Shown in pieces: positions 11,845 through 36,160 of a stretch of DNA of 64,000 bases. The notes under the pieces were generated by a model. The model saw nothing but the letters and a program-made list of their open reading frames with translations. It was not told the origin of the DNA and searched no databases. The position numbers and the translations under genes were made by a program. Origin of the DNA: an uncultured cyanobacterium (GTDB lineage Bacteria > Cyanobacteriota > Cyanobacteriia > Cyanobacteriales > CAWUOF01); contig CAVUSO010000001.1 of the NCBI GenBank assembly GCA_963744145.1, positions 1,632,001 to 1,696,000 on the forward strand, in the 5' to 3' direction. Numbering within the stretch: position 1 is the first letter of the stretch; each line of letters begins with the position of its first letter.

Positions 11845-12815
11845 CTATTTTTAAAAACCAATCAGTGAGTGCTCAACACCTGACGGTATCAAAGGTTAGG
11901 AAACAAGTGTTTAGTAAAAGAAATAATACCAATATATCGTGCTCAACACCTGACGGTATCAAAGGTTAGGAAACTTGCATTTAGCAATTAGGGAACTATC
12001 ACGCATATGTGCTCAACACCTGACGGTATCAAAGGTTAGGAAACCAACTCCATCCTGAACTATCCGAATGATACGATTGTGTGCTCAACACCTGACGGTA
12101 TCAAAGGTTAGGAAACTGGCAATTTCGCCAATTTGGTTGACCCAGTCAGCCGTGCTCAACACCTGACGGTATCAAAGGTTAGGAAACTTCCTTGCTCGTG
12201 ATAGGTTTGTTACCATTTTCGGGTGCTCAACACCTGACGGTATCAAAGGTTAGGAAACCTGCTTGACAATTTGTGGATAGTCGTGCATAATATATAGTGC
12301 TCAACACCTGACGGTATCAAAGGTTAGGAAACAAGTTTTCGTGCAGCAAAAATTAACCTACCGAGCCGTGCTCAACACCTGACGGTATCAAAGGTTAGGA
12401 AACAGCCCACCTAGATTCTACCGCTTCTAGTCCACCCTTGTGCTCAACACCTGACGGTATCAAAGGTTAGGAAACGCACTAGCCTGGTCCAAATCCCTAG
12501 AAATCGTTCGCTCGTGCTCAACACCTGACGGTATCAAAGGTTAGGAAACCTTCAAATCTTTTTCTGTGATCTGACAAACTCTCAACCATGTGCTCAACAC
12601 CTGACGGTATCAAAGGTTAGGAAACGAAAGTATAGCTCGGACATTCGGAAATATTTGAGGGTGCTCAACACCTGACGGTATCAAAGGTTAGGAAACTAGC
12701 TATCAGGAAGCTTCACCGCGGAGCTTGTAGATGTGCTCAACACCTGACGGTATCAAAGGTTAGGAAACCAATTAATCTTGTCTTTCTTTTTTCAACATAG
12801 AAGGTGCTCAACACC

Positions 12816-14288
12816 CAATACGGTTCGGTTAAGCTAAAAATCAGGTAAAATGAAAGTGTCACCTAAATGGAATGAGTAGGAATGCAGCTCAAAGAATTCA
12901 CTGTAATATCACCTGTGGTCGAATCAGGGATGATCCTCAAAGCGTTAGAAACAGCGATTCCATCGACAGCAATTGAAAAAGCCATTGAAGATACCAATAG
13001 AAAAGAGGAACGACAAAGAGCATTACCAACGCATCTGGTTATCTGTCTAATCATTGGGATGAGTCTATGGTCTAGGGGGTCAATGAGGACAGTGTTGAAA
13101 AATCTGGTTGATGGCTTAAATGAAGCATGGGTCAGAGTTAGTTATTATTGGCGAATACCATGTAAATCATCAATTACAGAAGCTAGACAGCGAGTAGGTG
13201 CAGGGGTAATGCGGCATCTGTTTCACATAGTAGTTAGACCACAGGCTACTAGGGAAACCCCAGGGGCTTTTTTAGGTGAAAAGCGAATTATGGCTGTAGA
13301 TGGAACAGTGTTTGATGTGCCAGATAGCGACACAAATGCCAGAGTATTTGGATATCCAGCTAGTCGTCCTGGAACTAGAGCCGCGTTTCCCAAGGTGCGT
13401 TTGGTTCTATTGATTGAAGCAGGAACACATTTAATTGTAGATGCCTTGATCTGCCCTTACCGAATCGGTGAGCGAGTCAGAGTGAAAAGGTTACTACGGT
13501 CAGTCACCACTGGAATGTTATTAATGTGGGATCGTGGATTGCATTCTTATGCAATGGTGCAAGCCACCTTGTCCCAAAAATGTGATTATTTGGGACGCAT
13601 CCCCAAAAATGTTAAATTTCCTGTGGAGCAGGTATTGGATGATGGTTCCTATCTCTCCTGGATTGCTCCCGACGGCAAGTCGAAAAAACAGGGCATGACC
13701 AAAATTATGGTTCGAGTCATTGAATACACTATTGATAATGGCGAAGCACAAACTTACCGTCTGATTACCAGTTTGACGGACATCGCTTTATTTCCAGCTT
13801 TATTATTAGCCACAGAATATCATCGTCGTTGGGAAGTTGAAAATACTATCGATGAATTGAAGGTTCATCAATTGGGACGTAAAACTCTGATTCGTTCTCT
13901 TCATCCCCGTGAAGTGGTTCAGGAAATTTATGGTTGGCTCCTCGGACATTGGGCGGTTCGTTCTCTCATGTTGACCGACGGCCACCTCTGCTCACATCTC
14001 CCCTTTACGATTGAGTTTTACTGGTACTCTCAATGTTGTCCGTCGTGCTATTCCCAAATTTCAGCGCCTTCAACCAGAAGAATTTCCCCTTTTTTTTAGT
14101 TGGTTGATCAGGGAAATTTTGGATGAACCAATTCCCAAACGTGAAGGTAGAAGTAACCCTCGTGTTATTAAAAAAACTCGCGCCAAATTTCCATCCAAGA
14201 AACCAATTCATAGAGGTCAGGGAGTTAAACATGAAACCCTCAATTTTTCTATCCTCAATACTGCTTAAAGCTTAACCGAACCGTATTG
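12816..14288 (+). mobile_element. IS4-family insertion sequence (1473 bp) inside CRISPR repeat 14
   Basis: Perfect 20-bp TIRs CAATACGGTTCGGTTAAGCT; 10-bp target duplication GCTCAACACC (12806-12815 and 14289-14298). Confidence 0.96.
12882..14268 (+). pseudogene. IS4 transposase, frameshifted near 13975
   Basis: AVDGT, WDRG and YHRRWEVE (YREK) DDE motifs; the C-terminus (ISPLRLSFTGTL...RSNPRVIK) continues in another frame. Confidence 0.88.
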
Positions 14289-17200
14289 GCTCAACACCTG
14301 ACGGTATCAAAGGTTAGGAAACATTTGTAACAAAACAAATCGATAACTCATAGTTACGTGCTCAACACCTGACGGTATCAAAGGTTAGGAAACAACCAAC
14401 TGACTAGTAAACTTTTGCGGATCAAGTTGTGCTCAACACCTGACGGTATCAAAGGTTAGGAAACCTATCCAAAAATTTCTGACAATAATACTGGGTCAAT
14501 GTGCTCAACACCTGACGGTATCAAAGGTTAGGAAACTCATCTAGATTTAGGCTGGGAAACGTTTGTTTTACGTGCTCAACACCTGACGGTATCAAAGGTT
14601 AGGAAACTATCCAATGGATGGACATCCTTAATGTAACTGGGGTGCTCAACACCTGACGGTATCAAAGGTTAGGAAACTAATTCATCCGAAACTAACAATA
14701 ATTCCTTAGCTTGTTGTGCTCAACACCTGACGGTATCAAAGGTTAGGAAACACAAATCAGATGGAAAAACCAAAGCAGCTAGTCTTGCGTGCTCAACACC
14801 TGACGGTATCAAAGGTTAGGAAACTTGGAATTGACTAGATAGCAAGAATGAACATGACTATGTGCTCAACACCTGACGGTATCAAAGGTTAGGAAACAGT
14901 CCCAAGATGATACTTTTGCTGATGATATTTATCGGTGCTCAACACCTGACGGTATCAAAGGTTAGGAAACAGTCCTGATTTTACAGGAATTATTAATTAT
15001 ATAAAGTGCTCAACACCTGACGGTATCAAAGGTTAGGAAACTTTGGGTAACGAGTGGTTTATTCGGGATGTCGTACGTGCTCAACACCTGACGGTATCAA
15101 AGGTTAGGAAACACTTTTTTCGCTCGCACTTGGGGCAAGTTTTATAATCGTGCTCAACACCTGACGGTATCAAAGGTTAGGAAACGCTCGCAGCTTGGCA
15201 ATACAGTGATTCTTATATAATGTGCTCAACACCTGACGGTATCAAAGGTTAGGAAACCCCCAAGTCCGGACAATACTGCACTGGCACTAAGAATGTGCTC
15301 AACACCTGACGGTATCAAAGGTTAGGAAACTAGCTGATGAAGCTCATACAGTTTGTTTTTTTGCTGGTGCTCAACACCTGACGGTATCAAAGGTTAGGAA
15401 ACTAATTGTTCTATTTTGTTTTGTTTATCTTTCAACCGTGCTCAACACCTGACGGTATCAAAGGTTAGGAAACCAGGCAAAAACTTGTCTTTTTCCCAAT
15501 CATGTCTTAGTGCTCAACACCTGACGGTATCAAAGGTTAGGAAACTTGCCCCTAAATGCCATTCATTAGGTGGGTAATAATGTGCTCAACACCTGACGGT
15601 ATCAAAGGTTAGGAAACTTATACGCCCCATAATAGTTTTCTGGGGATTTTAACGTGCTCAACACCTGACGGTATCAAAGGTTAGGAAACACCTCCGGAGA
15701 GATGGGAAAAAATTCCTAATTATCATGTGCTCAACACCTGACGGTATCAAAGGTTAGGAAACGATTGGTCAGCAAGAGAAGCGGCGAAAAATGCTGCTGT
15801 GCTCAACACCTGACGGTATCAAAGGTTAGGAAACGTCGGATAGATGTGTCGAGCTTTTTCGCTCAGATGTGCTCAACACCTGACGGTATCAAAGGTTAGG
15901 AAACACTCATTTTGGAGAAAAGATAAAAATCTTAACTTGTGCTCAACACCTGACGGTATCAAAGGTTAGGAAACTTCAAACATTACCCACGATTAACGAC
16001 TGGGATATGGTGCTCAACACCTGACGGTATCAAAGGTTAGGAAACTGAGGAACTAATAGAAAGTAACGGATATGAAAGAACGTGCTCAACACCTGACGGT
16101 ATCAAAGGTTAGGAAACTGATTTGATAGCTAACGATCGCGACCGAATTTGGATGTGCTCAACACCTGACGGTATCAAAGGTTAGGAAACAATCATCAAGC
16201 GGAGAAACTAAGAGAGCTTTTAGCGTGCTCAACACCTGACGGTATCAAAGGTTAGGAAACAAGAGCAGCCCGTAACGAATCTTTGCCGTTATTACGTGCT
16301 CAACACCTGACGGTATCAAAGGTTAGGAAACTACTGCATTATCTGGAAAGCCTCGTAATCCATAAGTCGTGCTCAACACCTGACGGTATCAAAGGTTAGG
16401 AAACACTTGACACAAGTCATAAAGACGTGCCATGATGTCGTGCTCAACACCTGACGGTATCAAAGGTTAGGAAACGAAGTTCATCCTTCAAATTGGCTAA
16501 GGATTGATAAGGTGCTCAACACCTGACGGTATCAAAGGTTAGGAAACAGTTCCCGGAACTACAAGTATTATTTTAAATAGTCGTGCTCAACACCTGACGG
16601 TATCAAAGGTTAGGAAACGGTAATTTATTTGTACCATCTACCTTGTCATTATCGTGCTCAACACCTGACGGTATCAAAGGTTAGGAAACTCGCTTGTTCA
16701 AGAATACGATCGGTTATGGGGGAAGTGCTCAACACCTGACGGTATCAAAGGTTAGGAAACACAGAAATCGATCAACTCCGCCGCGAACGAGATAAGTGCT
16801 CAACACCTGACGGTATCAAAGGTTAGGAAACAAGGGTTCCTGCTGGTATCCGCTTTCAGCGAGATGTGCTCAACACCTGACGGTATCAAAGGTTAGGAAA
16901 CATGGGGTCGTAGGTGCTGGAGTTACAGCCGCGTTAGTGTGCTCAACACCTGACGGTATCAAAGGTTAGGAAACAATTACCTTGACTTTTAGTCCCAGTC
17001 CCATCTACCCGTGCTCAACACCTGACGGTATCAAAGGTTAGGAAACATGGCTTGTGCTTTCGCACTTGAGCTAAATGTTGCTGTGCTCAACACCTGACGG
17101 TATCAAAGGTTAGGAAACCGTCCTACGCCACCAGGACAAACACCCCCTCCGCTCGTGCTCAACACCTGACGGTATCAAAGGTTAGGAAACGCGAAAAAGA

Positions 17201-20200
17201 GCAGAAAATAATTTAACAAAACTTAAGTGCTCAACACCTGACGGTATCAAAGGTTAGGAAACTAGATTAAGTGCTTGCACAGTTTCTTGAGGTAAGTGTG
17301 CTCAACACCTGACGGTATCAAAGGTTAGGAAACGGTTCTTCCGCAGGCGTTTCCATCCCACTGGTGCGTGCTCAACACCTGACGGTATCAAAGGTTAGGA
17401 AACACTTGGAACTATTCACAATGGAAAAGAACCCTATACCGTGCTCAACACCTGACGGTATCAAAGGTTAGGAAACTAAAATCTACCAAATGGTTAGCTG
17501 CTTTCCACATTTGTGCTCAACACCTGACGGTATCAAAGGTTAGGAAACGACCAGTAGAAAAAAACTGGCTGCCGCTGCTGCATGTGCTCAACACCTGACG
17601 GTATCAAAGGTTAGGAAACTCTGCTAGCAAAAGTTTTATCATCTGCACTAATATTGTGCTCAACACCTGACGGTATCAAAGGTTAGGAAACTGGGAGATT
17701 ATTAAACAATCTCCCATTCACTTAGGTGCTCAACACCTGACGGTATCAAAGGTTAGGAAACTATGGCTTTGGAACCATCAATCAAAATGATTGTTTGTGC
17801 TCAACACCTGACGGTATCAAAGGTTAGGAAACCAGAGGTTAAGAAACGAAAACAAAAGCTAGATGTCGTGCTCAACACCTGACGGTATCAAAGGTTAGGA
17901 AACATTGATCGTGTGATTTATGCCCGCTTTGTTCTAGGAGTGCTCAACACCTGACGGTATCAAAGGTTAGGAAACTATCGAATTTTCGATAGTGATATTA
18001 ATTCCTGTTCGTGCTCAACACCTGACGGTATCAAAGGTTAGGAAACCAATAATGGAGGAGTAGCCGGAGAAAACGAAACTACTGTGCTCAACACCTGACG
18101 GTATCAAAGGTTAGGAAACTTACTTAAATGGCAATGTAAACATATTGCTGGTATAGTGCTCAACACCTGACGGTATCAAAGGTTAGGAAACCTCTCCCAT
18201 CTTAACTTCCCCAGTGGTCAGTTTCACGTGCTCAACACCTGACGGTATCAAAGGTTAGGAAACGAACAAAAATATCAGGGTGAACTGCCCATCACACCCG
18301 TGCTCAACACCTGACGGTATCAAAGGTTAGGAAACATTGAATTTGCTGCAACTGTTCAAGCAGATATTTACGTGCTCAACACCTGACGGTATCAAAGGTT
18401 AGGAAACTGCATCTAGATCGGATTGCGATCGCTGAATCAGAAGGTGCTCAACACCTGACGGTATCAAAGGTTAGGAAACTCGTGGTCAATCGCCATTTAT
18501 TGCGGAAGTACCATAGTGCTCAACACCTGACGGTATCAAAGGTTAGGAAACTGTTTGGCTGCATCAGTCCCCCCCTCTTTATCTCGTGCTCAACACCTGA
18601 CGGTATCAAAGGTTAGGAAACTTGAGAAGTTCCAGCCGGAATACTGGGAGGAGAATATTGTGCTCAACACCTGACGGTATCAAAGGTTAGGAAACAACTG
18701 AAGAAATTAGATACTTACCTCTCAGTGATTGTGCTCAACACCTGACGGTATCAAAGGTTAGGAAACTCGGGGGCAACTACCTAGGATTTTGCATTAAAGA
18801 TTTTATGCCTGACCGTGCTCAACACCTGACGGTATCAAAGGTTAGGAAACCTTCAGTTTGTTCAAGGGAATCTCTATCCGTCCCGTGCTCAACACCTGAC
18901 GGTATCAAAGGTTAGGAAACTCGAGCATCAGCTTATCAATATACCCAAGACCCGTCGGTGCTCAACACCTGACGGTATCAAAGGTTAGGAAACAATGTCA
19001 CAGCATGATACTCAGCCCGTTGATCTCAGAGTGCTCAACACCTGACGGTATCAAAGGTTAGGAAACTAAGAAAGGACTTGACTCTAACTCTGTTAGTTGA
19101 AAGTGCTCAACACCTGACGGTATCAAAGGTTAGGAAACTGTATCCTTTGGAAGAGATTTTGTACCTATATCCGTGCTCAACACCTGACGGTATCAAAGGT
19201 TAGGAAACCTGGACATAGTTCACTTACCTCTCTACAAAGGTAGTGCTCAACACCTGACGGTATCAAAGGTTAGGAAACAACAAGTCAATACCCATATCCG
19301 TGGTGGCAATATCACGTGCTCAACACCTGACGGTATCAAAGGTTAGGAAACTTTATACCCTTTTTCAGACGCATCCAGTGTAAACAGTGCTCAACACCTG
19401 ACGGTATCAAAGGTTAGGAAACTAGTGTTGCGTGACATGGGACTTCGCGAGTTTTTAGTGCTCAACACCTGACGGTATCAAAGGTTAGGAAACCAGTACC
19501 TTCAGCCTCTTCAGTCTCTAGAGCTTCTGGTGCTCAACACCTGACGGTATCAAAGGTTAGGAAACACGCAAAACGAAAAAAAACTGGAATTAATAATTTC
19601 GTCCTCAACACCTGACGGTATCAAAGGTTAGGAAACATAGTGAGTTGCAGATATGGACTATATCGGTGCCAGGTGCTCAACACCTGACGGTATCAAAGGT
19701 TAGGAAACTTCCCAGTATTCTTTCAGCTCTTCACTAACTTTACAGTGCTCAACACCTGACGGTATCAAAGGTTAGGAAACCAGATTAGTCGGGATACCAT
19801 AAACTGGTGTTGGTAAGGTGCTCAACACCTGACGGTATCAAAGGTTAGGAAACTTCTTGGACCGATGCAACCAGCACCAGCTGGTTACGTGCTCAACACC
19901 TGACGGTATCAAAGGTTAGGAAACGTTGAAGAAGGACCACAAGAACCAAAAAACACGATCAGTGCTCAACACCTGACGGTATCAAAGGTTAGGAAACATT
20001 GAGTGCAACATGTGATAAGTCATTACAGGTGACATCGTGCTCAACACCTGACGGTATCAAAGGTTAGGAAACGCTTGGAGCAAGTCAGGGTTCTAAACAA
20101 CAATAATGTGCTCAACACCTGACGGTATCAAAGGTTAGGAAACTGGGAACTTAGACGTGCAGCGGATAATCGAAAATATTTAGGTGCTCAACACCTGACG

Positions 20201-21340
20201 GTATCAAAGGTTAGGAAACACAAATGGCATTCTCATTTCTACGAATCTATACGGTAATGTGCTCAACACCTGACGGTATCAAAGGTTAGGAAACTTGGAT
20301 ATTGACGATATTGGATAATCAAAGTCCGGTGTGCTCAACACCTGACGGTATCAAAGGTTAGGAAACTCTTTCTACCATCGGAATACTTAATGCTATTACT
20401 TTGTGCTCAACACCTGACGGTATCAAAGGTTAGGAAACTATCGTGCGATTAATCCGTGAACTGGACTACACTATCAGTGCTCAACACCTGACGGTATCAA
20501 AGGTTAGGAAACCTTTGAAGCCAAGCATATTCCACAGCGTTTACCAAGTGCTCAACACCTGACGGTATCAAAGGTTAGGAAACTACCGCGCGAAATAAGA
20601 AGCCTAATTAATTGTACAATGACCTGTGCTCAACACCTGACGGTATCAAAGGTTAGGAAACCTGACTAATTGCAGGGATACACTAAGGAAGATACCGAAC
20701 AGTGCTCAACACCTGACGGTATCAAAGGTTAGGAAACAGCTAGCATTGACGTAACTTTATAACGTGCTGGGAAATATCGTGCTCAACACCTGACGGTATC
20801 AAAGGTTAGGAAACAAAGAACTTGGTATCCAGCAAATGCTTGCCGAATCTGGATAGTGCTCAACACCTGACGGTATCAAAGGTTAGGAAACTTACCCCCA
20901 ATCAGTGAAAAGACAGAGCGGTCAGAAAGAGTGCTCAACACCTGACGGTATCAAAGGTTAGGAAACATGCCTAGCTCTTTTGCATTACAAGAGTTATCGC
21001 AAGATGACGTGCTCAACACCTGACGGTATCAAAGGTTAGGAAACTACGATAGACGACCAGTACGGACGTAAATTATGTTTATGAGTGCTCAACACCTGAC
21101 GGTATCAAAGGTTAGGAAACTTGCTACTGGGACGGGCTATTTCTGCGGCGTTCATGTGTGCTCAACACCTGACGGTATCAAAGGTTAGGAAACATTTTAA
21201 TCTGGATAAGCATTACATGACAGTAATTGCGTGCTCAACACCTGACGGTATCAAAGGTTAGGAAACATGAACTTAAAGGCAGTTGGATACGCCAATAGCT
21301 TAGTGTGCTCAACACCTGACGGTATCAAAGGTTAGGAAAC

Positions 21341-21601
21341 CGCGATCGCTGAACATCTCATAGCATAAGCGTTTCTGGCATATTTTACAAGCATCACCAA
21401 TTTGGAAACTATAAAGCTAAAAAATTTAGGTGAAATACCCGTTAAGAGTGACCCTCTCATATACCAAAACCCTTATCTAGTCTAGGATTTACCATTTTGC
21501 AAGCATCTTACCTGGTTCCAAAACTACCTCGATCGCAGTCCAGACAACGGTTTTCAGCTTTAATTTATTCTGTAAAACCTCTACAAACAGCGATCCTTGC
21601 A
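21341..21601 (-). promoter_or_regulatory. CRISPR leader
   Basis: AT-rich non-coding gap between cas2 and the first repeat in transcribed orientation; direct repeat ATTTT(A/G)CAAGCATC at 21382 and 21494. Confidence 0.85.
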
Positions 21602-21895
21602 TCAGATAATTCGGTATGCTTCCTCTACTAAAGGCCAAGCTTGAGGACGATTATACAGATGTATTCCCTCAACACAGCGATTACATAGACGAATCAAAAG
21701 TAAGCTATCCTTAATATCTAAAACTTGCTCTAGTTCCCATCGTAGTTTCTCCCGTTCTCGCTGGCTTAACCAACAGCGAAAAATAGAGTATTGGATTCTT
21801 TCACCGTAGCCTTTAAGTAGTTTGTAAGCCTTACGCCAGCGTTTGGAGTCCCGAATATCGTAGGCTACCAGATACCAGTTTTGGGATTCAGCCAT
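21602..21895 (-). CDS. cas2: CRISPR-associated Cas2
   Basis: YLVAYDI, GERIQYSIF and DSL motifs; 97 aa. Confidence 0.96.
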   Translation of the reverse strand: MAESQNWYLVAYDIRDSKRWRKAYKLLKGYGERIQYSIFRCWLSQREREKLRWELEQVLDIKDSLLLIRLCNRCVEGIHLYNRPQAWPLVEEAYRII

Positions 21896-21904
21896 AATCT
21901 TACC

Positions 21905-23569
21905 TCATCGCATAACTAACTGACCAAATAATCCGCCTTCACCGTTCCACTCCTTTTCCAGCAACCGTACCTCTAGCTCCAATAGACGACGGTAAGTCAG
22001 GGAATAGCCTGTAGCTGGATGTTTCCAACTTTCTTGCTTACGACGTTCATATAGGCTAACCAACTTGTGCCGTCCTGGCTCACTTAACCATACCTGTTCA
22101 CCTCGTATGGTAAAATCTGCCTGCGCGTCCCACTGACCGCGATTGACTGCACCCATTACAATCACATCCACCAAAGGCACCCGAAAAACTTCCATCAAAT
22201 CCAGTGCTAGAGGTGCAGCCTGAGAGCGCGGTTGATGATAAAAACCCAATGCAGGTTCTAATCCCACAGTCAGAATACTATTCATCACATCTTTAAGCAG
22301 GAGTGCATAGCCAAAACTCAGCAGAGCATTAAATCGGTCTTTGGGTGGACGGCGATTGCGACCATTAAAATGTAGTTCTGGATTAACTTCTGCGGAAATC
22401 AGACAGGGCAATGCCCCAAAATACAAAGCAGCCAAATTGCCTTCCAAGCCTAGTAGAGATTCCAAGGACTTAGCTTTGGGAACTTGTTTAAGGATAAGTC
22501 GCATCTGAGCGATCGCCCGTTTCAAAGCCTCTGGTGCTGGTTTAACTCCTCTTGTCCCTCGCATCAAAAATTTCCGCTGCCCCTGACCGCGACAGCTCAC
22601 CAGTTTGCAAGCTAGCTCCAAACAAGTATTGGAATTGCTCAAAGCCTCATACTGGCGAATACGACGCTGGATACTACCTTGTCGAGAATCAAAGCTACCA
22701 ATATAACGCCCTCCTCCAGAGATAAAATGCACACCAATACCCTGGTCAGTACAAAAGTGTAAGGCTTGAGTAGAGATTTGGGAAAAGCTGTGCAGCACTA
22801 ACTGTCCTACCTGATGGGCAGGAATAGTTTCTACTGGTTGAGCGCGACGGACAATTTTGAGCTGTTCTCCAGTGCGCCCAACACTTGTACCGGGTTCAAG
22901 AATATGGATTACCTGGCGATCGTCATCTGCTGGAAATAAGCGAATCGTTTCCTGCTCCTGGTTATGGGCAAGTCGGGCTTCTTCTGGAAGACAAACCGGA
23001 GCTAAAGAACAGCGGATACAAAGCCGTTCATTATCTGTGACGGGTGGACGACAAGAAGACTGTCTGATTTCTCGCGCTTGTTCGATCGCAGCTTTAACAC
23101 TTGCTCGTCCTTCATCATCAAGAGGTACATGCACCAGTACATTATCAGCATGATAACGGATACGACCTTCTTGGATAGGGATATTCAGGGCTGATTCCAG
23201 CAAACAAGCATAAGCAAGAACTTGAATGCGATCGCTTTCCCAAGCTTGGGGTTGCTTATTCTCATCTCGGTGACAGCGACCACGTTTGTGTTCATAGGGA
23301 ATAGTTTGTCCATCACGAGTACGGAGAGCATCGAGCCGACCACGTAAACCTAGTTCTTCACTTTCAAGAAATAATTCTTCCCACTCTTCATCTTCTTTTT
23401 TTTCAATTTCAACGTGCAGCCTACGTCCGGCAAAAACAGCCGCATCTTGCGTGTAAAGTTCTTCGACTTCTTCGAGATAGAATAGACGAGGACAATAAGC
23501 TAAAGCATGAAGGGCAGAGACGCGAATAGTAGCTGGTGAAACATCAATTTCAGGCGCAAACATAATCAT
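21905..23569 (-). CDS. cas1: Cas4-Cas1 fusion (Myxan type)
   Basis: N-terminal YCPR, D-x-EHK and CxxCxxxxxC Cas4 motifs; C-terminal LEG, FNALLSFGY, GFYH and DLME Cas1 motifs. GAGG RBS 5 nt before ATG 23569. Confidence 0.95.
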   Translation of the reverse strand: MIMFAPEIDVSPATIRVSALHALAYCPRLFYLEEVEELYTQDAAVFAGRRLHVEIEKKEDEEWEELFLESEELGLRGRLDALRTRDGQTIPYEHKRGRCHRDENKQPQAWESDRIQVLAYACLLESALNIPIQEGRIRYHADNVLVHVPLDDEGRASVKAAIEQAREIRQSSCRPPVTDNERLCIRCSLAPVCLPEEARLAHNQEQETIRLFPADDDRQVIHILEPGTSVGRTGEQLKIVRRAQPVETIPAHQVGQLVLHSFSQISTQALHFCTDQGIGVHFISGGGRYIGSFDSRQGSIQRRIRQYEALSNSNTCLELACKLVSCRGQGQRKFLMRGTRGVKPAPEALKRAIAQMRLILKQVPKAKSLESLLGLEGNLAALYFGALPCLISAEVNPELHFNGRNRRPPKDRFNALLSFGYALLLKDVMNSILTVGLEPALGFYHQPRSQAAPLALDLMEVFRVPLVDVIVMGAVNRGQWDAQADFTIRGEQVWLSEPGRHKLVSLYERRKQESWKHPATGYSLTYRRLLELEVRLLEKEWNGEGGLFGQLVMR

Positions 23570-23590
23570 GAATACCTCAAGGATAAGAAT

Positions 23591-23666
23591 TAGGTAAGCG
23601 CCCAAAGGCATCAAAGATTAAGGGGATTTTTGATAACGTTTTGCCGTATCAATAGTGCAATTAAAC
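23591..23666 (-). repeat. Degenerate CRISPR-repeat-like hairpin(s) in the cas5-cas4/1 intergenic region
   Basis: 23591-23626 matches the repeat at 20/36 positions (18/26 core) with a covarying stem pair; 23629-23666 is a weaker copy with its own hairpin. Confidence 0.65.
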
Positions 23667-23673
23667 TCTGTGG

Positions 23674-24372
23674 CTAGTCTGGTTTTTTAGGTGTCCATAT
23701 CCAAGCATTACTTGGTGGATATATAGACGGTTCAACAATGGGTGCAAATAGGTAATTCGTGGTTTTACTATTATCAAGGCGATCGATACCTACAGTCAAT
23801 CGATGCGATCGCTTACGTGGTGCTGAATCAATTTCCATCTTTTCATACCAGTGAGTTAATGGTGGGTGATCAACAATATCAATTCGATCAAACAGGAAGT
23901 TATTGTCCCCTGCAAATGGCATACCGTATCGGCGATCATTTAGTTCACCTCGTAAACCTTGACGAATGCGATCAAATAAGCCGTCAAATTCACAAATACC
24001 GATGATCATATCTAAACCAACCAGTAACTCTCTCCGCACAGGTACAATCCAATACTTAGCACCATGTGTTTTTATTTTCAATTCCTTCCCCGAAGCTCCG
24101 ACAGGATAACTATGAAGCTGTTGATAAAGGGTGCATATTTCACTTTCCGAACCATCAACTGCACCGATCGCTAACTGCAAATGGGGAATATCTGAACAAA
24201 TTTGGGTTGTTGGTTTATCCAACCCTGTTCGCATTTCAATCCCTGCCAGATTTAGCACTAAACCCAAAGCAGCAGATGGAGGCATGATCGGCATTGTTGA
24301 GCGATAAACACCAGCTTGAAAACCACGATAGGCAGCAAAGGGTGCACGAACGCGCAACCACATACAATTCAT
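23674..24372 (-). CDS. cas5: Cas5 (DevS/Cmx5 type)
   Basis: LRVRAPFAAYR, PPSAALGLVLNLAG and RRELL motifs. Confidence 0.93.
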   Translation of the reverse strand: MNCMWLRVRAPFAAYRGFQAGVYRSTMPIMPPSAALGLVLNLAGIEMRTGLDKPTTQICSDIPHLQLAIGAVDGSESEICTLYQQLHSYPVGASGKELKIKTHGAKYWIVPVRRELLVGLDMIIGICEFDGLFDRIRQGLRGELNDRRYGMPFAGDNNFLFDRIDIVDHPPLTHWYEKMEIDSAPRKRSHRLTVGIDRLDNSKTTNYLFAPIVEPSIYPPSNAWIWTPKKPD

Positions 24373-24381
24373 TACATTCTC

Positions 24382-25269
24382 CTAACCTAAAAATTCCTTC
24401 GCGATTTCAATTAGCAACTTTTGCGGATTTTCGTATAACTTGGCACCAGCATCTCCGTTTTCTAAACGTTTCCGTTCTTCAGCTTTCATATTGCGAACAA
24501 TCTCACCACCAATCCAAAACTCATTAGGTGGGAGATCTTCAGAATTCAATCGGGACAATTCAGGAAAGTTTCCAGTTTCATCAAAACCATAGGTATTAAA
24601 TCCTGCCACAAGACAAGGAGTAAGACGTGCAATAATACTCTTAGGAGCCATTTCGTAATAACTACGTGCGTGACCACCTGCTACATCTGAGAGTTCACTA
24701 ATTGCCTTAAGTAAAGCCTTTACCCAATTAGGCTGATCTTTACAGTCATTGTAAGCGAGAGCAAACGGATACTGATAAGCTGTATGAGAAATCTCACGAT
24801 GCAAAAGTGCCGAAGTAGATGAGTTTTTCCAAGGGCTATTTCCTGCATTGAGGGGAGATTGATGAAAAGTAGCATCAAATCGATAGGGATTTAAAGCTAG
24901 AGCCATATTCATTCGTAGAATACTATCGCGCTTTGGTGGCAATCCTTTGTTCTTTTTAATAGCATCATTATCTGCAACCATGAAGCCGAACAAGAAATCA
25001 TCAGCATATTTAGTAGCATTAGGGAATTCTTGAAACTCAACAGCAAGTTGGTCTTGATCATGCAAGCGTCGGCGGTTAGATGGTAAACCTGCGGCAATCA
25101 ACATTTCGCGCAAAGCATTACGCATAGACTCAGGACTGATGACGGTGTATTCCTTTTTGTCTTTCACAATTTTCTGGAGAACAGTACGGTTTTCTTCGCT
25201 TTCACCACGATAATTAGAACTTGGTGCAGCATAGGTGAGAATAGTTGCAAATAGATTCTTGTTAGACAT
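24382..25269 (-). CDS. cas7: Cas7 (DevR type)
   Basis: SNYRGESEENRTVLQK, ISPESMRNALRE, DDFLFGFM and VAGGHARS motifs. Confidence 0.93.
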   Translation of the reverse strand: MSNKNLFATILTYAAPSSNYRGESEENRTVLQKIVKDKKEYTVISPESMRNALREMLIAAGLPSNRRRLHDQDQLAVEFQEFPNATKYADDFLFGFMVADNDAIKKNKGLPPKRDSILRMNMALALNPYRFDATFHQSPLNAGNSPWKNSSTSALLHREISHTAYQYPFALAYNDCKDQPNWVKALLKAISELSDVAGGHARSYYEMAPKSIIARLTPCLVAGFNTYGFDETGNFPELSRLNSEDLPPNEFWIGGEIVRNMKAEERKRLENGDAGAKLYENPQKLLIEIAKEFLG

Positions 25270-25289: not shown

Positions 25290-25667
25290 TTAGCTGTTAG
25301 CTGAAAGAGCAAGCATGGTCAAAGTACGCACTTTGTCTGTATCTTCATAGAGATCGCGAGTGAGTTTTTCAAAACTTTCCTCATTCATTCTTCGCTGTGG
25401 TACAGAACAAAGGGTAGAAGCAAAGTAATTGATAAAATCTGACTTTTCGGTACGGCTACGAACTTCGAGAAAAGCTGATTTAGCAATCTTGACTTTCTTC
25501 TCACGATATTCACTTTCTTTCGGTGAACCTTGTACATCCTTCCACTTAAGTTGATATTTACTATCCAACTTAGTCAATACATAGGATTGCACTAATTTGT
25601 ATATGAGTTTCTCACAAGAGTATTCGGAAACTTCAAGATCGGGATTTTGTTCTGTTTCTTCGGTCAT
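25290..25667 (-). CDS. cas11: Cas11 small subunit from an internal in-frame start in cas8 (125 aa)
   Basis: GAGGTGG RBS (25673-25679) 5 nt before in-frame ATG (Met424); internal Cas11 translation is established for type I-B. Confidence 0.75.
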   Translation of the reverse strand: MTEETEQNPDLEVSEYSCEKLIYKLVQSYVLTKLDSKYQLKWKDVQGSPKESEYREKKVKIAKSAFLEVRSRTEKSDFINYFASTLCSVPQRRMNEESFEKLTRDLYEDTDKVRTLTMLALSANS

Positions 25668-26936
25668 ATTTTCCACCTCATATTTGAATGATTCGCGAAC
25701 ATCATGACAGAAATAATCATTTGCCATCGTTTGTTCATAGGAAATAGTACATAGTAGCGAATCAAATCCTATATACCAAGCTTTATTACTTACTAGATTG
25801 AGCAATCTTTGGCGGCGAAATGTAGCGTGCCACAAATTGTTTCGGATGTCTCGATACTTATCAATCCATTCTGGTTCTGGTGGATCGAGCCTTATTGTAC
25901 CGAGAATGCGAACATTGTTACCTTGCTTTTCAGCGTGAATTACATCCACACCCATTACCAAATCACCGATGCTAGTTTCTAATCTAGAAACACGATCTCG
26001 CAATCTAGCCATCATATCTAAGGCTCCTTCTACCGCTAAATCAACTACAGCGTCACGAGGGCGATAGCCTGTAATTTCACTTCCGCGTTCTTTCAATAAC
26101 TCGAAAAATTCATCACAGAATGTTTTTAACTGTGCAATATCAGGAATAGCGATCGCATAGCCAACAAAATCGCGCTTACCTTCGTTGTTAATTACGGCTG
26201 GTATATAGATAGAAACTGCAAATACCCAAAAATGCAAAAGGAATTGATATCTTGCCCGATCCTTAAATGGTACATTTTCAGGATTACTAGCTTGCGCTCC
26301 TAAATAATAGGTACTCGGTAAGTCAACTGTAAACTCAGAAGGCTGTAAAAGTTCTTGCCAGATTTTATCAGCATCTTTGGTATAATAGTGACCCAAGGGC
26401 AAATTTACCCTTGATTCATAGGGTAATCGCGTGCTTGGAACACCGCGCAAAATACTCCAGAGCATATCTCGCCAAAGTTTAATCCACTTACCGCGATCGC
26501 CTTCAGGATCTGCATCAGCAATAAATGCACCTTTTGGCACAACTATCGGATAAATATAGACTTTTTTCTTGACAGGATTACCTTTTTTATCAACATCGTC
26601 TTTTTCTTCTTCTCGCAAATAAGGAATAACTTCCTTAGTACGAGAATTTTTCAAAACTTGCGTCCGTTCTTGTTCTTCCTCATTTGCAGCATAAACCTCA
26701 TTGAATAGAGCTTGTAAACCTAGTTGGTTAATTCGTAAAGTAACTGAGCGATCGCTTAAATGCTCAGTTTCACAAATTGCAATTCCATCCTGTTTCCATA
26801 GCTCAAAACGATTTAACCACCGCACCATCAAAACCAATCCTGCTAAACCAGCGCGATGCTGTGATGATGGCAACTCCGCCAAAGAATAGGTAAGATCCAA
26901 TACGTCAATATGTGTATTGATCTTTTTCTTAGCCAA
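25290..26936 (-). CDS. cas8: Cas8 large subunit (Cmx8 type)
   Basis: LPSSQHRAGLAGL, WRDMLWSILRGVP and EKQGNNVR motifs; position between cas3 and cas7. Confidence 0.9.
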   Translation of the reverse strand: MAKKKINTHIDVLDLTYSLAELPSSQHRAGLAGLVLMVRWLNRFELWKQDGIAICETEHLSDRSVTLRINQLGLQALFNEVYAANEEEQERTQVLKNSRTKEVIPYLREEEKDDVDKKGNPVKKKVYIYPIVVPKGAFIADADPEGDRGKWIKLWRDMLWSILRGVPSTRLPYESRVNLPLGHYYTKDADKIWQELLQPSEFTVDLPSTYYLGAQASNPENVPFKDRARYQFLLHFWVFAVSIYIPAVINNEGKRDFVGYAIAIPDIAQLKTFCDEFFELLKERGSEITGYRPRDAVVDLAVEGALDMMARLRDRVSRLETSIGDLVMGVDVIHAEKQGNNVRILGTIRLDPPEPEWIDKYRDIRNNLWHATFRRQRLLNLVSNKAWYIGFDSLLCTISYEQTMANDYFCHDVRESFKYEVENMTEETEQNPDLEVSEYSCEKLIYKLVQSYVLTKLDSKYQLKWKDVQGSPKESEYREKKVKIAKSAFLEVRSRTEKSDFINYFASTLCSVPQRRMNEESFEKLTRDLYEDTDKVRTLTMLALSANS

Positions 26937-29271
26937 GGTTTATCTCCTCCTGGTTTTTCGTTGAAAATCCCGATCGCTCATCATAATTACCTTCCCACTG
27001 AGCAACACCTAAATATTTTGGCAACCAACTTGGTTTTTCATCGGATGGGTTTACTGCTTGACGTGGAACGCTTATAATAAATCCGTCATAAGTTTGTTTC
27101 TTAGGCTTAGATTCAATACATTTCTTGACCTCATCAAGATCGCGATCTAAAATGCAAGGAAGAGCATACTCATCGGGATCACGGAAATTACCCATTGTGG
27201 CAAAATAACCACTTGTAAAGAATGATGGTAATCCATCGGCTGTTCTCTCTTCGTTGGCAAATTTCTCTAAAGCCTCAGCTAACTGCTTTTGACTGATATC
27301 ACCACTACCTAATTTATCAATAAAGGTTTTTGCAGTACCTAACTCTTTAGCCTCGTATGGCAAATCCTTTGGTGGTTTGTAAATATGTAGCATAGCCCGA
27401 AAATTATCACCTCTAGCCAAGTGACGATTAGCTCGTCCAAAACGTTGAACCAATGAGGATATTGGTGCAAGTTCAGTAATCAAAACATCAGCATCTAAAT
27501 CGAGGGACATTTCACAAACTTGTGTAGTTACAGCGATCGCCGACCGGCGATCGCCATCTTTTTGAAAAGCAAACGCTTTTACAGTATCCGCATGAACTTT
27601 TTGGCGATCCATCAATCGGAAGCGACTATGATAGGTCAAAACTTCCACATTCAATTCATCAGCCAACTTCTTGGAAATTGCCAAACAACGATCAACTGTA
27701 TTCACAACCCATAAAACTCTTTCACCTTGTCTATATGCCTGAATTGCCTTTGTAAAAGCATTCCTAAAACATTCTACAGGTTGAAGTCGATAGCGGGGGT
27801 GATTTTCTTTCTTTTCAAGGTCTTGCAGACTCTGGCGATCGCTTTCTGTTGGATAAACCTCTAACCCCAAATTCACAAGTTGTTTACGACGAGATGGGGG
27901 TAAAGTCGCAGTCATACATAAAACAGGGATATCGAAATGCTTGAGAAAAGCTATCAAACTATCAAACATCTTCAAATCGAAGCTATGGATCTCGTCAATA
28001 ATCAGAACGCTATCCGCTAAAGCAGGTAATAAACAGATACCACCATAATTATGTTCCATAAAGCCCAAAAATTGATCAACTGTTGCGCTAAAATACCGCC
28101 GCGACCAGAAACCTAAAGAAAACAAACGGTGATCACTTGTAAAGTCTTTTTCTTTCATTGATTCGGGTGGGTTAGAAGCGATTGCTTCCAGTTCATAACG
28201 GGCTGTACCCGTCACTAATGCTGCATCAGTTTCAGGTGCCCAACTCACATAATCTTTAAAACCCTCTGTAGCAGTACCGCGTGTGGGATAGAGAAAAATC
28301 ACTTTCCCAACTTTATAATGCTTAACCTGTTCCTCAGCCCATTTCCAAGCTGCAAGGGTTTTACCTGCACCGCAAGCTGCCAAAAGTAAAACTCGCGATC
28401 CTTTTTGCGCTGCTAATCTTTGAAATTCATCCCATTTGAAGCTACCTTTATCTTTGATTATTTTTTCAATACGAGGATTAATAATCTTTGTAGTGATATC
28501 TGCACTAGAAATATTATCACTATGGACAACATCTTCAATCCAATCATAAATATTTTTATTCTCTCTAACTAATCCAGAAGCAACCGCATCAGAGACAATC
28601 AGTCCTGCTTTTACCCCTAAAAGTAATCTTCTTCTTTCTTCGGTTATTTGACGCATTAGCTTCTTGGCTGTATCCATCCCTTCTGTCCGTGCTTTAGACC
28701 ATATAGGGTCATTTTGAGAGAAAGTAGAAAATGAAAGTTCAGGTGGTTTGTCAAGAGCCGCAATATTAGCAATTTCTTCCAAAATGCTTTTAACTTCATC
28801 ATGTAGCAAATAAAGCCGAACAGATCCACGAAGTTTATTTGGTTTTGCCCATTCGCGATCACCTTTGCTAGAAGCTTTTAAATGATGGGACAATACCGCT
28901 GCTGTTATAATTTCAACATCTAAAGGTGTTCGATTTAACCAAGAGCGTATTTGAGGTAAGTGTAGTATCAAAGCACTGATATGTTCGTGTCTGAAAGTCT
29001 GAGTGGAACCTTTTAATACAGCGTCATAGAATTCTTCATTCGCCTTTCCAACGTCATGAAATAAGGCTGCAATACGCAAATTCAAAAGAAATTTATGTTG
29101 CTCTTTCTCACTTGTTAACTGAAAAAAACGACACCAGTTTTGCCCCCAACGACCATCTAATCGAAATATTTGATGTGCAGATTTCTCTGTATCTAATAAA
29201 TGCTCTTGCAATGTAACAATGCGATCGCCAAGTTTACTTTTTGCTAAGAGTTGTTCTGGTAAGTTTGCCAT
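26929..29271 (-). CDS. cas3: Cas3 HD nuclease-helicase
   Basis: HDVGK, RHEH and SHH HD motifs; GAGKT, DEIH, TAT and QRFGRANR helicase motifs. Confidence 0.96.
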   Translation of the reverse strand: MANLPEQLLAKSKLGDRIVTLQEHLLDTEKSAHQIFRLDGRWGQNWCRFFQLTSEKEQHKFLLNLRIAALFHDVGKANEEFYDAVLKGSTQTFRHEHISALILHLPQIRSWLNRTPLDVEIITAAVLSHHLKASSKGDREWAKPNKLRGSVRLYLLHDEVKSILEEIANIAALDKPPELSFSTFSQNDPIWSKARTEGMDTAKKLMRQITEERRRLLLGVKAGLIVSDAVASGLVRENKNIYDWIEDVVHSDNISSADITTKIINPRIEKIIKDKGSFKWDEFQRLAAQKGSRVLLLAACGAGKTLAAWKWAEEQVKHYKVGKVIFLYPTRGTATEGFKDYVSWAPETDAALVTGTARYELEAIASNPPESMKEKDFTSDHRLFSLGFWSRRYFSATVDQFLGFMEHNYGGICLLPALADSVLIIDEIHSFDLKMFDSLIAFLKHFDIPVLCMTATLPPSRRKQLVNLGLEVYPTESDRQSLQDLEKKENHPRYRLQPVECFRNAFTKAIQAYRQGERVLWVVNTVDRCLAISKKLADELNVEVLTYHSRFRLMDRQKVHADTVKAFAFQKDGDRRSAIAVTTQVCEMSLDLDADVLITELAPISSLVQRFGRANRHLARGDNFRAMLHIYKPPKDLPYEAKELGTAKTFIDKLGSGDISQKQLAEALEKFANEERTADGLPSFFTSGYFATMGNFRDPDEYALPCILDRDLDEVKKCIESKPKKQTYDGFIISVPRQAVNPSDEKPSWLPKYLGVAQWEGNYDERSGFSTKNQEEINLG

Positions 29272-29922
29272 TTATTTAACCTCTTTCATTGGCATAAATA
29301 CACCGCAACCCATACGATGCTTACCACCCAATCCAGAAACCTGTAACTTAATCGAGTCTTCCTCACTTAAGCCCGATACTTCCAGCCCAAACCCTACTAC
29401 AGTATAGGTCTTGATTTTGATGGTCTTGCGATCTGCTTTCCCCTCAGTATTCAAAGGCAAAATTACCTCACCCATAACTCCCAAATCCGCTAATTGTAAC
29501 TTTGCCGCTTGCAAAAAACTCTCTGGTTCCTGATAGTTTTTGATAATAACAATCCGAGCGCGTAATCTCTCAGCAGGACGCAACATAAAAATTTGCGGAA
29601 TACCCAATTGAATTGAATGCCCCCCAATAGTTAACCGTTTTCCCGCCAAGTGATAAATCGTAGGCATACACTCATAGGGCAACCGAATGCGTAAATGCGA
29701 TCGCTCGGTCAAAAAAATCTGGCCTTGCTTATCCGGAATTCCAGCAATTGTGAGAATACTCAAACCATCTTGCTGGTGAATTTGGGGAGCTAAATGAGCG
29801 ATCGCGCTATACAACCCATAACCATGATCGGCGGGAAGCGTCTGCCCAACTACTCCAAAACTCAACTCCACACAAGGCAAACTACCTAACTGTGTAACTG
29901 AACCGTATTCATTTGCCAGCAT
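29272..29922 (-). CDS. cas6: Cas6 endoribonuclease (Cmx6 type)
   Basis: LPADHGYGLYSAI; glycine-rich GLGGKHRMGCGVF. Confidence 0.95.
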   Translation of the reverse strand: MLANEYGSVTQLGSLPCVELSFGVVGQTLPADHGYGLYSAIAHLAPQIHQQDGLSILTIAGIPDKQGQIFLTERSHLRIRLPYECMPTIYHLAGKRLTIGGHSIQLGIPQIFMLRPAERLRARIVIIKNYQEPESFLQAAKLQLADLGVMGEVILPLNTEGKADRKTIKIKTYTVVGFGLEVSGLSEEDSIKLQVSGLGGKHRMGCGVFMPMKEVK

Positions 29923-30904
29923 CCTTGTCTCCTAAAGAGTTTGAATAAATACTGTACATTTGCTTTATTTCTTCCTGAACCATCTGCACCAATTCTGGTG
30001 GAGCCTTTACCACTGCTCCCTTCCCATAGCCCAAAACCCACCGTTTTAGATCATTTATCCCCCGGACTACCATACACAAGGTTAATGACCCATCAGAATG
30101 TTCTTGGATCTTCTGTGTTGAATGCCAGCATCGCTCCCGGATGTACGGAGCTGTTGGTGCATCAAACCAAATAGCAACTGAGTGTTCTATTCCACCCGCT
30201 TCATGCTGGAAAATCATCGCCAGATGATCTTTTGCATTGAATAAAGGGTTTGGCACAAAAGTTGATTCCAATATCTGAAGTTGCTTAATCCGATCAACAC
30301 GAAACCAGCGAATCTCCTGACGGTTATGGCAGTAACCAATCACATAGGGATTAGTGCCACGATAAATATACAAAACATAAGGATCGAGCTTGCGTGTTGA
30401 AACTGTATCCCGACTAGCAGTGTAATAGGTCATCTCAACTGTTTTATGAATCTGACAAGCTTCTTCTAGCTGATGCCATATCTCTGGATTTAGGTCGATC
30501 TGTGCTCCGGCCCGAAACAAAATCCGCTCCTCTGCTAACTCTTGCAGATCAACCCATGTTTCCTCTGGCAGCCGCTCCTTCAACCGTTCAATCGCTGAAC
30601 GCAACTTCTCCGCCCAAACTGAACCAGCATAAGTTTCTAGCATCCGCGCTCCCAAAGTAAGAGCAAACAGTTCTCCTTGGGAGAGAGAAATGCTTGGTAA
30701 GCGCCACTGGGAATTAGTGTAATGAAAACCTTGTTGAGGATTATATGCCAATGGAGCACTGAAGCGATCGCGCAAAAACGCTATATCATTACGAACAGTA
30801 CGCTCACTAACTTCTAAAGTTAAAGCTATTTTGGCTGTTGTCGGTCGTTTTGCAGTCCGCAGCAGCTCATCAAGTTGCAATAATCTTTCTAAGTGACGAG
30901 ACAT
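29909..30904 (-). CDS. HTH-WYL-WCX transcriptional regulator heading the cas operon
   Basis: LEVSERTVRNDI HTH; R-x-x-DPY, YVIGYC and RWFRVDRI WYL motifs; WVLGYG...PPEL WCX. Confidence 0.93.
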   Translation of the reverse strand: MSRHLERLLQLDELLRTAKRPTTAKIALTLEVSERTVRNDIAFLRDRFSAPLAYNPQQGFHYTNSQWRLPSISLSQGELFALTLGARMLETYAGSVWAEKLRSAIERLKERLPEETWVDLQELAEERILFRAGAQIDLNPEIWHQLEEACQIHKTVEMTYYTASRDTVSTRKLDPYVLYIYRGTNPYVIGYCHNRQEIRWFRVDRIKQLQILESTFVPNPLFNAKDHLAMIFQHEAGGIEHSVAIWFDAPTAPYIRERCWHSTQKIQEHSDGSLTLCMVVRGINDLKRWVLGYGKGAVVKAPPELVQMVQEEIKQMYSIYSNSLGDKDAGK

Positions 30905-30936: not shown

Positions 30937-30970
30937 ACTTTAATGGAGCTACCCGGCAAAAACCTTGCCG
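30937..30970 (-). promoter_or_regulatory. Candidate WYL operator and -10 element
   Basis: Palindrome CGGCAA-N5-TTGCCG (30954-30970); minus-strand TAAAGT at 30942-30937. Confidence 0.55.
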
Positions 30971-31024
30971 CCTTCAGCAAATTTATAAGATTAATTCTTA
31001 GTAATTGATAAAAAATAAACAGCC

Positions 31025-31058: not shown

Positions 31059-31071
31059 AGTGAAATAATAA

Positions 31072-31189
31072 CCTGGCACCGAGCTATTTTCCCAGGCAGC
31101 AACCCGCCAAGTATCTTCGCCGCAGCAGCGTTTCACAACTGAGTTCGGGATGGGGTCAGAGTGGGACCACTGCGCCAACAGCACCAGGA
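31072..31189 (-). rRNA. rrf: 5S rRNA
   Basis: TCCTGGTG...CCGAACTCAGTTGTGAAACG...CCAGG. Confidence 0.96.
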
Positions 31190-31272
31190 AAGCTGTAGGA
31201 CTCTCAAAAGACAGAGACCTGAAGACTGCATAAAAAACAAGTCAAGAAGCGACATCGAAACCAAAAATTAGA

Positions 31273-34151
<2,879 letters not shown>

Positions 34152-34364
34152 ACTTTTGTTCAAACTTTTTTGGCTTGTTTTTTTGCTTAGTAAGAAATTG
34201 CTGTGGTTTCTTCTTCAGAAACTTCACTTTCTCACCTGCTTTCTGACTTGTTTTTATGCAGTTTTCAAGGTTCTGGCTGGGAAAGAGCCCCAGCAGTCCG
34301 TGCCCTGGTCTACCCAAGTTCACGCTTTGCTGAGTTCTGTTGTTCTAGCAGTTACTTCTGCTAG

Positions 34365-34437
34365 TGGAGGTATGCGGACTCGAACCGCAGACATCTGCCT
34401 TGCAAAGGCAGCGCTCTACCAACTGAGCTATACCCCC
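34365..34437 (-). tRNA. tRNA-Ala(TGC)
   Basis: GGGGGTATAGCTCAG...TGC...GGTTCGAGTCC...CTCCA, 73 nt, in the ITS. Confidence 0.97.
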
Positions 34438-34457
34438 TGTCGCTTGACTACCCTAGG

Positions 34458-34531
<74 letters not shown>

Positions 34532-34670: not shown

Positions 34671-36160
<1,490 letters not shown>

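Follow-up and report, generated by a model that had tools for sequence, protein, structure and literature searches.

A solitary degenerate CRISPR repeat predicted to pair with the ribosome-binding region of cas4/1 in cyanobacterial type I-MYXAN loci, a plausible point of control by Cas6

A complete type I-MYXAN CRISPR-Cas locus, with all of its genes on the minus strand, lies within one 64-kb window of the genome of an uncultured cyanobacterium (contig CAVUSO010000001.1, positions 1,632,001 to 1,696,000), the window being the whole stretch of DNA analysed here, numbered from its first letter. Between cas5 and the cas4/1 fusion gene of this locus is a solitary degenerate CRISPR repeat, referred to as psiR (23591-23626, minus strand), which begins 57 nt before the cas4/1 ATG (A at 23569). 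psiR derives from a CRISPR repeat and is homologous to the terminal repeat of arrays found 5' of cas4/1 in related loci. On the evidence of the sequences compared below, it represents a terminal repeat that has been recycled and can pair with the cas4/1 ribosome-binding site (RBS), and it is kept well beyond the genome of the window, and control of cas4/1 by Cas6 through this element is plausible.

Read in the direction of transcription, the locus runs from a WYL-domain regulator gene (29909-30904) at the head of the cas operon through cas6 (29272-29922), cas3 (26929-29271), cmx8 (25290-26936), cas7 (24382-25269), cas5 (23674-24372), cas4/1 (21905-23569) and cas2 (21602-21895) to a presumed leader of ~260 nt (21341-21601), between cas2 and the array, and the main CRISPR array itself (11869-21340), all on the minus strand. 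The cas6 product, of the Cmx6 type (NCBIfam TIGR02807, 245.5 bits), is the presumed trans-acting partner of psiR. The gene upstream of cas4/1 is cas5, of the Cmx5/DevS type (NCBIfam TIGR02586, 121 bits), the fusion matches NCBIfam cas1_MYXAN (568 bits) plus cas4, and cas2 (NCBIfam TIGR01573), lying 3' of it, is presumed to belong to the same transcription unit. The start of cas4/1 is taken as the ATG at 23569-23567, rather than the upstream TTG at 23614, because alignments of orthologues begin at residues 1-15 of that reading. From the cas5 stop to this ATG there are 104 nt, the sole sizeable intergenic gap of the operon, with psiR inside it. The array contains 111 repeats and is split by an IS4-family insertion. 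It is taken to be transcribed on the gene strand because Rfam CRISPR-DR33 matches its repeats on the minus strand (E about 1e-5), the 6-bp stem of the repeat, with two G.U pairs, is by inspection formed on the minus strand only, and in nearly all related loci the array lies ~250 nt downstream of cas2 in the orientation of the cas genes.

An initial annotation of this stretch had pointed to repeat mimics between cas5 and cas4/1 and had proposed them as a Cas6 switch on the mRNA of the adaptation genes. The identity on which it relied is reproduced in both coordinates and counts, as psiR (23626 to 23591), aligned without gaps to the transcribed strand of the array repeat, shares 20/36 positions with it in the same orientation (18/26 within repeat positions 5-30). 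Such identity is not significant, since 15 non-array sites in the 64-kb window reach at least 20/36, those at 20 or 21/36 being divided into five in the array orientation and ten in the opposite one. With identity to the window's own repeat at chance level, a weight matrix of the repeat family was used instead, for which related I-MYXAN loci supplied 66 full-length array repeats, mimics excluded, and which was scored over positions 9-30. The core score of psiR on this matrix is 13.4, a value that only three non-array sites, psiR included, attain across the whole 7.7 Mb genome (both strands, 15.4 million placements); about 9e-6 matches of at least 13.4 would be expected in the 68 sense-strand placements of the cas5-cas4/1 gap. 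An Rfam covariance search returned no match at 23591-23666 at E <= 1, only the array repeats matching CRISPR-DR33.

The stem of psiR (23612-23597) reads GATGCC / TTTG / GGCGCT against GATACC / GTCA / GGTGTT in the array, a correspondence drawn previously with one outer mismatch, which is read here as a single A.C in the second outermost pair. The annotation had further described a compensatory change from A-U to G-C in psiR, and here the direction has to be reversed. Array repeats of the family commonly carry the stem GATGCC / GTAA / GGCGTT and the 3' end GAGCAC, and the G-C state of psiR is present in nearly every related array repeat listed; psiR keeps the family pair, and it is the array of the window that has changed to A-U. 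The 3' end of the family repeats (GAGCAC or GATCAC) is not kept in psiR, whose counterpart of this segment (23591-23596, minus strand), corresponding to most of the CRISPR RNA (crRNA) 5' handle, reads TACCTA against GAGCAC. The decayed handle noticed earlier proves general, the six 3' nucleotides being degenerate in all copies inspected, the window's included. Over repeat positions 31-36 the matrix score is negative in every listed element at 45-80 nt before a cas4/1 ATG, compared with +3 to +11 in canonical repeats.

Two nucleotides upstream of psiR is a second, more decayed repeat-like copy (23629-23664, minus strand) with a hairpin at 23630-23652. Its identity to the array repeat is 17/36 by hand count and its core matrix score is 5.8, as high as which 41 non-array sites are found genome-wide and about 2e-4 are expected in the gap. 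The weaker copy of the initial annotation is probably repeat-derived as well. The two copies, 2 nt apart, do not show the regular alternation with ~35-nt spacers of an array. Two related loci have two repeat-like copies 5-6 nt apart 5' of cas4/1, at -105 and -64 in L049 and at -106 and -64 in L064 (L numbers denote loci of the sample described below), comparable to the 2-nt tandem of the window, and such near-spacerless tandems suggest that spacers have been deleted repeatedly at this site.

Of 401 sampled genomes of the phylum, 28 gave a match; setting aside that of the window, this left 27 other I-MYXAN loci, to which 80 more were added by way of the Cas4/1 protein for a total of 108 with the window. 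Ten of these have no cas4/1 5' end or upstream DNA, and the 98 scorable loci include 8 duplicates, leaving 90 distinct ones. Calling psiR wherever a core score of at least 10 occurs at -45 to -80 from the cas4/1 ATG, the element is present at this position in 49 of the 90 loci, solitary in 36, including the window, and with further repeats upstream in 13; three more have a more distal match only. Examples of a full array that reaches cas4/1 with psiR as its last degenerate repeat are L047, L052, L053, L054, L067, L085, L093 and L104. On a Cas4/1 tree (FastTree, local supports only), 48 of the 49 psiR-positive loci fall within a single clade of 63 rows with a support of 97, in which solitary and array-bearing states are intermixed and several losses have occurred. 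psiR remains with cas4/1 irrespective of the gene upstream, which is cas5 in the window and an inserted Uma2-family gene (PF05685) in many Nostoc-type loci. Between the 3' end of psiR and the ATG, the linker measures 18-35 nt, with hardly any column conserved; to judge by these comparisons, psiR is far better kept than its surroundings. The element of the window accordingly fits the description of a standalone repeat-like element, intergenic, outside the array and kept in related loci.

Other solitary repeat-like elements occur at cas junctions of the sample, 5' of uma2 in L046, L058, L100, L105 and L033 and 5' of cas7 in L087 and L084. Several loci have a Uma2-family gene (PF05685) flanked by two such elements, as if it had been inserted into a former array.

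The array relic that had been listed as an alternative is correct as to origin, psiR being the terminal repeat of an array directly upstream in 13 relatives. A neutral relic, namely the last repeat of a collapsed array in functionless decay, would also suit the second, more decayed and spacerless copy that the window retains, the standing of the window's psiR as one of the weakest, and the loss of the element in several sub-lineages. It is nonetheless improbable, as psiR is kept at -45 to -80 across a large Cas4/1 clade next to a linker variable in both sequence and length, and as a complementary RBS segment co-occurs with it, compensates for its changes and is absent from 27/27 psiR-less loci tested (see below).

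The same loci bear on the proposal of a crRNA-like regulatory RNA, in which the two copies would act as a CreA/CreR-type mini-array whose short guide would direct Cascade to a promoter. Such a role is common among repeat-like elements of cas loci, according to the accessible text of PMC10120712, and L047 and L071 show a repeat, a spacer of 36-41 nt and then psiR. In the window, on the other hand, the copies are 2 nt apart, so that there are not two units separated by a spacer of 20-60 bp, and psiR is solitary in 36 of the 49 psiR-bearing loci. The last spacers are also unrelated among L052, L053, L054 and L104, members of one starred Calothrix-group clade. Furthermore, what is conserved is a hairpin with its RBS complement and not a handle plus seed. 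A guide of this type is consequently very improbable, and the reading preferred here is that psiR acts in cis, on the gene next to it.

Two folds of the cas4/1 5' untranslated region (UTR) are relevant to that reading. The first, hairpin A (23597-23612, minus strand), is the Cas6-type stem-loop of the repeat, with its 5' arm at 23612-23607, its loop at 23606-23603 and its 3' arm at 23602-23597. The second, helix B, is newly recognised here and supplies a concrete mechanism for the proposed switch. In it, the 12-15 nt before the cas4/1 ATG pair with the 5' arm of psiR, with the loop and with the two G residues that open the 3' arm; in the window this anti-psiR segment occupies 23571-23582 on the minus strand and includes the Shine-Dalgarno GAGG (23575-23578). 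When each sequence was folded from the first base of psiR to ATG+12, helix B came out as the minimum free energy (MFE) structure for 35 of the 38 non-identical sequences, among them the window, and hairpin A for two, L065 and L087. Helix B is also found in 10 of 14 further loci, mostly array-bearing. For the window, the MFE of this segment is -13.4 kcal/mol with helix B formed by GAUGCCUU/GAGGUAUU plus GGG/CCU, which covers the Shine-Dalgarno GAGG.

Alignment A1 (MAFFT; 48 sequences, 47 distinct, whose rows are kin) shows the cells of helix B to be paired in 83.0% of cases, a figure that falls to 31-50% if the 3' partner is shifted by 1-3 columns. Cells with both sides changed number 18 against 8.6 in shuffles, with 1 of 500 shuffles reaching 18, and the covariation score of the helix is 0.147 against 0.113 (1/500). 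The clearest pair, 23-70, is U-A in 20 rows, C-G in 11 and U-G in 3. An alignment-independent measure agrees, as duplexes of the psiR core with the RBS segment of its own locus have a mean energy of -13.6 kcal/mol, compared with -6.1 kcal/mol for shuffled RBS segments, with z < -2 in 42/47; the corresponding values in the window are -12.5 and -6.2 kcal/mol. Conserved pairing over the initiation region, together with compensatory changes, is what RBS masking entails, and both are found in the family, the result for the window varying with the flank that is folded. In addition, the predicted mean unpaired probability of the initiation region (-16 to +3) rises from 0.38 to 0.69 after a cut at repeat position 28/29, being higher in 43 of 48 sequences. 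A reversed psiR gave 0.50 against 0.38, and is a poor control in that the reversed sequence retains partial pairing.

The complementarity is specific to cas4/1-linked psiR. Where psiR is lacking, the RBS segment pairs with the array repeat at z < -2 in 0/27 loci (mean -4.6 kcal/mol); where it is present, this is so in 18/35. The seven psiR-like elements elsewhere, five 5' of uma2 and two 5' of cas7, show no pairing with the RBS of the next gene (z -2.0 to +1.4), which rules out a general rule of psiR plus RBS. Within psiR-bearing loci the RBS segment fits the psiR in cis better than the array repeat of its own locus in 25 of 32. Taking these three comparisons together, the anti-psiR strand, as a predicted pairing partner, exists only together with cas4/1-linked psiR and tracks it.

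These comparisons also count against sensing in trans, in which the cas4/1 RBS would serve as an "anti-repeat" for unprocessed repeats of the precursor crRNA (pre-crRNA), a heavy load of which would repress adaptation. The array repeat does pair with the RBS segment at a mean of -11.2 kcal/mol in 32 loci, and at -11.6 kcal/mol in the window compared with -12.5 kcal/mol for psiR. The better fit in cis, the absence of an anti-repeat from every psiR-less locus examined, and the fact that at the covarying position the RBS segment follows the U or C of psiR and not that of the array, leave this explanation with little probability, and favour psiR as the partner.

Hairpin A is conserved in a different manner. 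Its inner 4 pairs are retained in 46-47 of the 47 distinct rows of A1. The CCT at repeat positions 10-12, which is part of neither helix, and the CG at positions 27-28, which belongs to hairpin A and lies outside helix B, are invariant or nearly so, just as they are in true repeats. Since a hairpin that did no more than mask the RBS could dispense with these bases, their retention counts for selection on the repeat-type fold. By its resemblance to the repeat, with stem, loop and 5' flank kept, psiR is a candidate Cas6 substrate.

The preferred reading, to which a probability of roughly 0.45 is given, is that psiR is a terminal repeat retained after array collapse and now serves as a two-fold cis-regulatory RNA, with Cas6 freeing the cas4/1 RBS. 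An array that once stood between the effector and adaptation genes would have collapsed, leaving psiR in the cas4/1 5' UTR, where the two folds would be mutually exclusive. Hairpin A, equivalent to the repeat hairpin recognised by Cas6 in pre-crRNA, is local and would form first during transcription, whereas helix B, the more stable, would cover the initiation region and block translation initiation. Free Cas6 would bind hairpin A and probably cut it at the stem's 3' base, a site about 29 nt ahead of the ATG that is expected by analogy with other Cas6 enzymes. Once Cas6 has bound or cut, the anti-RBS strand would be held or severed and cas4/1-cas2 translated; in the absence of capture by Cas6, helix B would take over and the adaptation genes would be poorly translated. 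In array-bearing relatives, cas4/1 starts 18-35 nt past the terminal repeat, and the 5' end of its mRNA would there arise most simply from processing. Of the switch initially proposed, the repeat derivation, the sense orientation and the fixed distance (49/90) hold, with RBS pairing now added to them, while the action of Cas6 remains a prediction; its binding or cutting, the sign of the effect on translation and a physiological role, for instance in tying acquisition to spare Cas6, are what we infer from these features.

A number of observations weigh against the preferred reading. With 40 nt of coding sequence or the full intergenic region included, the MFE of the window is another fold, in which the 3' arm pairs with cas4/1 codons 4-6, and with such longer flanks the predicted accessibility of the RBS is unaltered by a cut (0.56 against 0.57); the window may thus, as modelled, represent a weakened or rewired version of the family element. 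Its psiR is in any case among the most diverged members, with a core score of 13.4 and the loop TTTG in place of GTAA, and the element is wholly absent in 38 of the 90 loci. When pairs rather than cells with both sides changed are counted, helix B is not above shuffles (175/500), and with rows that are kin and this measure at shuffle level, the covariation is supportive and not proof. Hairpin A has its outer A-U pair broken in 23 of the 47 rows, reaches -1.8 kcal/mol in the window against -13.4 kcal/mol for helix B over the same stretch, and has no both-side changes in A1, so that it is supported by conservation only. Aligning related loci, as had been suggested, confirms that the element is kept, in 49/90, and gives no stem covariation in hairpin A. 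The nucleotides 3' of the stem are also unlike those of a canonical repeat, for which reason Cas6 cleavage may fail.

One rival explanation is a damper independent of Cas6, with helix B as the sole functional structure, setting constitutively low translation of Cas4/1-Cas2 or tuning the stability of the mRNA, and the likeness to a repeat being raw material. The frequency of helix B as predicted MFE (35/38), the weakness of hairpin A, its eroded outer pair and lack of both-side changes, and the decayed handle are all in keeping with it. Set against these are the CCT at positions 10-12 and the CG at 27-28, invariant or nearly so outside helix B, and the problem of how the helix would be opened. 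Translational coupling to the upstream gene was considered and rejected, as the upstream stop codon lies 46-160 nt off or there is no upstream open reading frame, and ribosomes arriving from upstream cannot explain the opening. A damper of this kind has an appreciable probability, lower than that of control of cas4/1 through capture of psiR by Cas6, which continues to be preferred. A further step, held tentatively and at a lower probability than that reading, is that psiR is a natural riboregulator operated by Cas6, in which spare Cas6, not occupied on pre-crRNA, would unmask the RBS and license acquisition only when processing capacity exceeds the load of the array.

Several features of the locus and its neighbourhood lie outside this argument. 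The IS4-family insertion (about 12730-14286), with a transposase gene at 12882-14099 on the plus strand (Nterm_IS4 plus DDE_Tnp_1), divides the array into 13 and 98 repeats, and the repeat adjoining it (14287) has two altered bases. One spacer is 48 nt in length (18767-18814) compared with ~35 nt for the others, and the repeat at 19601 is a single-base variant (GTCCTC...). Three further cas1 loci, at about 4.48, 4.81 and 5.09 Mb of the genome, fall below the I-MYXAN cut-off, indicating the presence of other CRISPR-Cas types and perhaps of additional Cas6 proteins. A complete rRNA operon (31071-36161; 16S, two tRNAs, 23S, 5S) immediately precedes the cas operon on the minus strand. The end of the 5S gene is separated by 167 nt from the WYL-regulator gene, with, by eye, a hairpin and then a T-run between them. 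An inverted repeat, CGGCAA-N5-TTGCCG followed by GG (30950-30975, minus strand), is located ~50 nt 5' of the same gene, and a similar motif, GGAAR..TTTTGCCGGG, is found 5' of cas4/1 in psiR-less loci (L057, L082, L035, L069 and L087, at about -75 to -100). This motif may serve as an operator or -35 region common to the two genes, which would offer another means of driving cas4/1. The 8-mer TTTTGCCG also occurs on the plus strand within the second repeat-like copy of the window (23639-23646); it shows no enrichment across the window, where 5 occurrences stand against an expectation of 2.7. A promoter-like site inside cas5 (23799-23770, 10/12 matches) was discarded, the scan having given 2 such sites against 5.9 in shuffles.

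The means by which cells hold spacer acquisition low while leaving it inducible are little understood, and the known controls are mostly transcriptional. Should the preferred mechanism be confirmed, it would add a new layer of CRISPR self-regulation by tying translation of the acquisition genes to the enzyme that processes crRNA, and would give solitary repeats a function beyond the known guide-like RNAs. If spare Cas6 does license acquisition, a feedback between the size or expression of the array and adaptation would be built into the locus, and the engineered Csy4 translational activators and Cas6-based synthetic RNA switches would have a natural counterpart and precedent.

Among known elements, psiR is close in make-up to the degenerate terminal repeat of an array, sharing its family, orientation, intact 5' part and stem, and decayed 3' end. 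It differs in having no array attached in the window and 35 other loci, and in its fixed distance from cas4/1 and complementary RBS segment. In logic, the proposal resembles the operators in mRNA leaders that mimic a substrate, such as the tRNA-like thrS operator and the rRNA-like sites of ribosomal-protein genes, in which the amount of free protein sets translation. As with these, the substrate of an RNA-binding protein would be mimicked in an mRNA leader. The thrS and ribosomal-protein mimics, however, repress when bound, whereas for psiR the prediction is activation upon binding or cutting, and of a gene other than that of the binder.

Repeat-like single units and mini-arrays within cas loci, with a degenerate distal repeat and conserved among related loci, are described in the accessible text of the preprint of Shmakov et al. 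(PMC10120712), where the proposal is that they yield guide-like RNAs by which Cascade represses promoters. psiR is like the elements in that text in being repeat-like, intergenic in a cas locus and conserved among relatives, and unlike them in having the neighbouring RBS, in cis, as its conserved partner. The CreTA and CreR regulators, as presented there, likewise involve repeat-derived RNA in cas loci regulating cas-linked genes (PMC10120712), but require two repeat-like units, a spacer and binding of DNA by Cascade, none of which is seen for psiR. The terms cyanobacteri-, Myxan, cas4 and translation are absent from the main text of that work, and its two text supplements have no match for Nostoc, Calothrix, Fischerella or cas4; the larger tables, outside view, may list such loci. 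The longest exact run shared by psiR and its own repeat, ~7 nt, is below the 16-bp match threshold given in the text (PMC10120712), so the survey would probably miss the copy in the window. Full-text searches of the literature, leaving aside those large tables of Shmakov et al., returned no natural instance in which a hairpin of the Cas6 type masks the RBS of a gene for adaptation.

The Cas5 and Cas7 of the window are, respectively, members of the Cas5/DevS and Cas7/DevR families, which also include proteins of the dev locus of Myxococcus xanthus. There, according to the accessible text of PMC8616872, DevTRS autoregulate by an unknown, Cas6-independent route, which is a different step from the one proposed for psiR. 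A parallel to the proposal is the engineered translational activator based on Csy4 (Cas6f), in which, as a review sets out, a hairpin is placed between a cis-repressive strand and the RBS, and cleavage releases the RBS (PMC8621321). The proposal for psiR shares the logic of this device, a Cas6-family hairpin and release of an RBS. It differs in that psiR is natural and the device synthetic, in that the hairpin's own 5' arm and loop constitute the repressive strand, and in that the action of Cas6 on psiR is a prediction.

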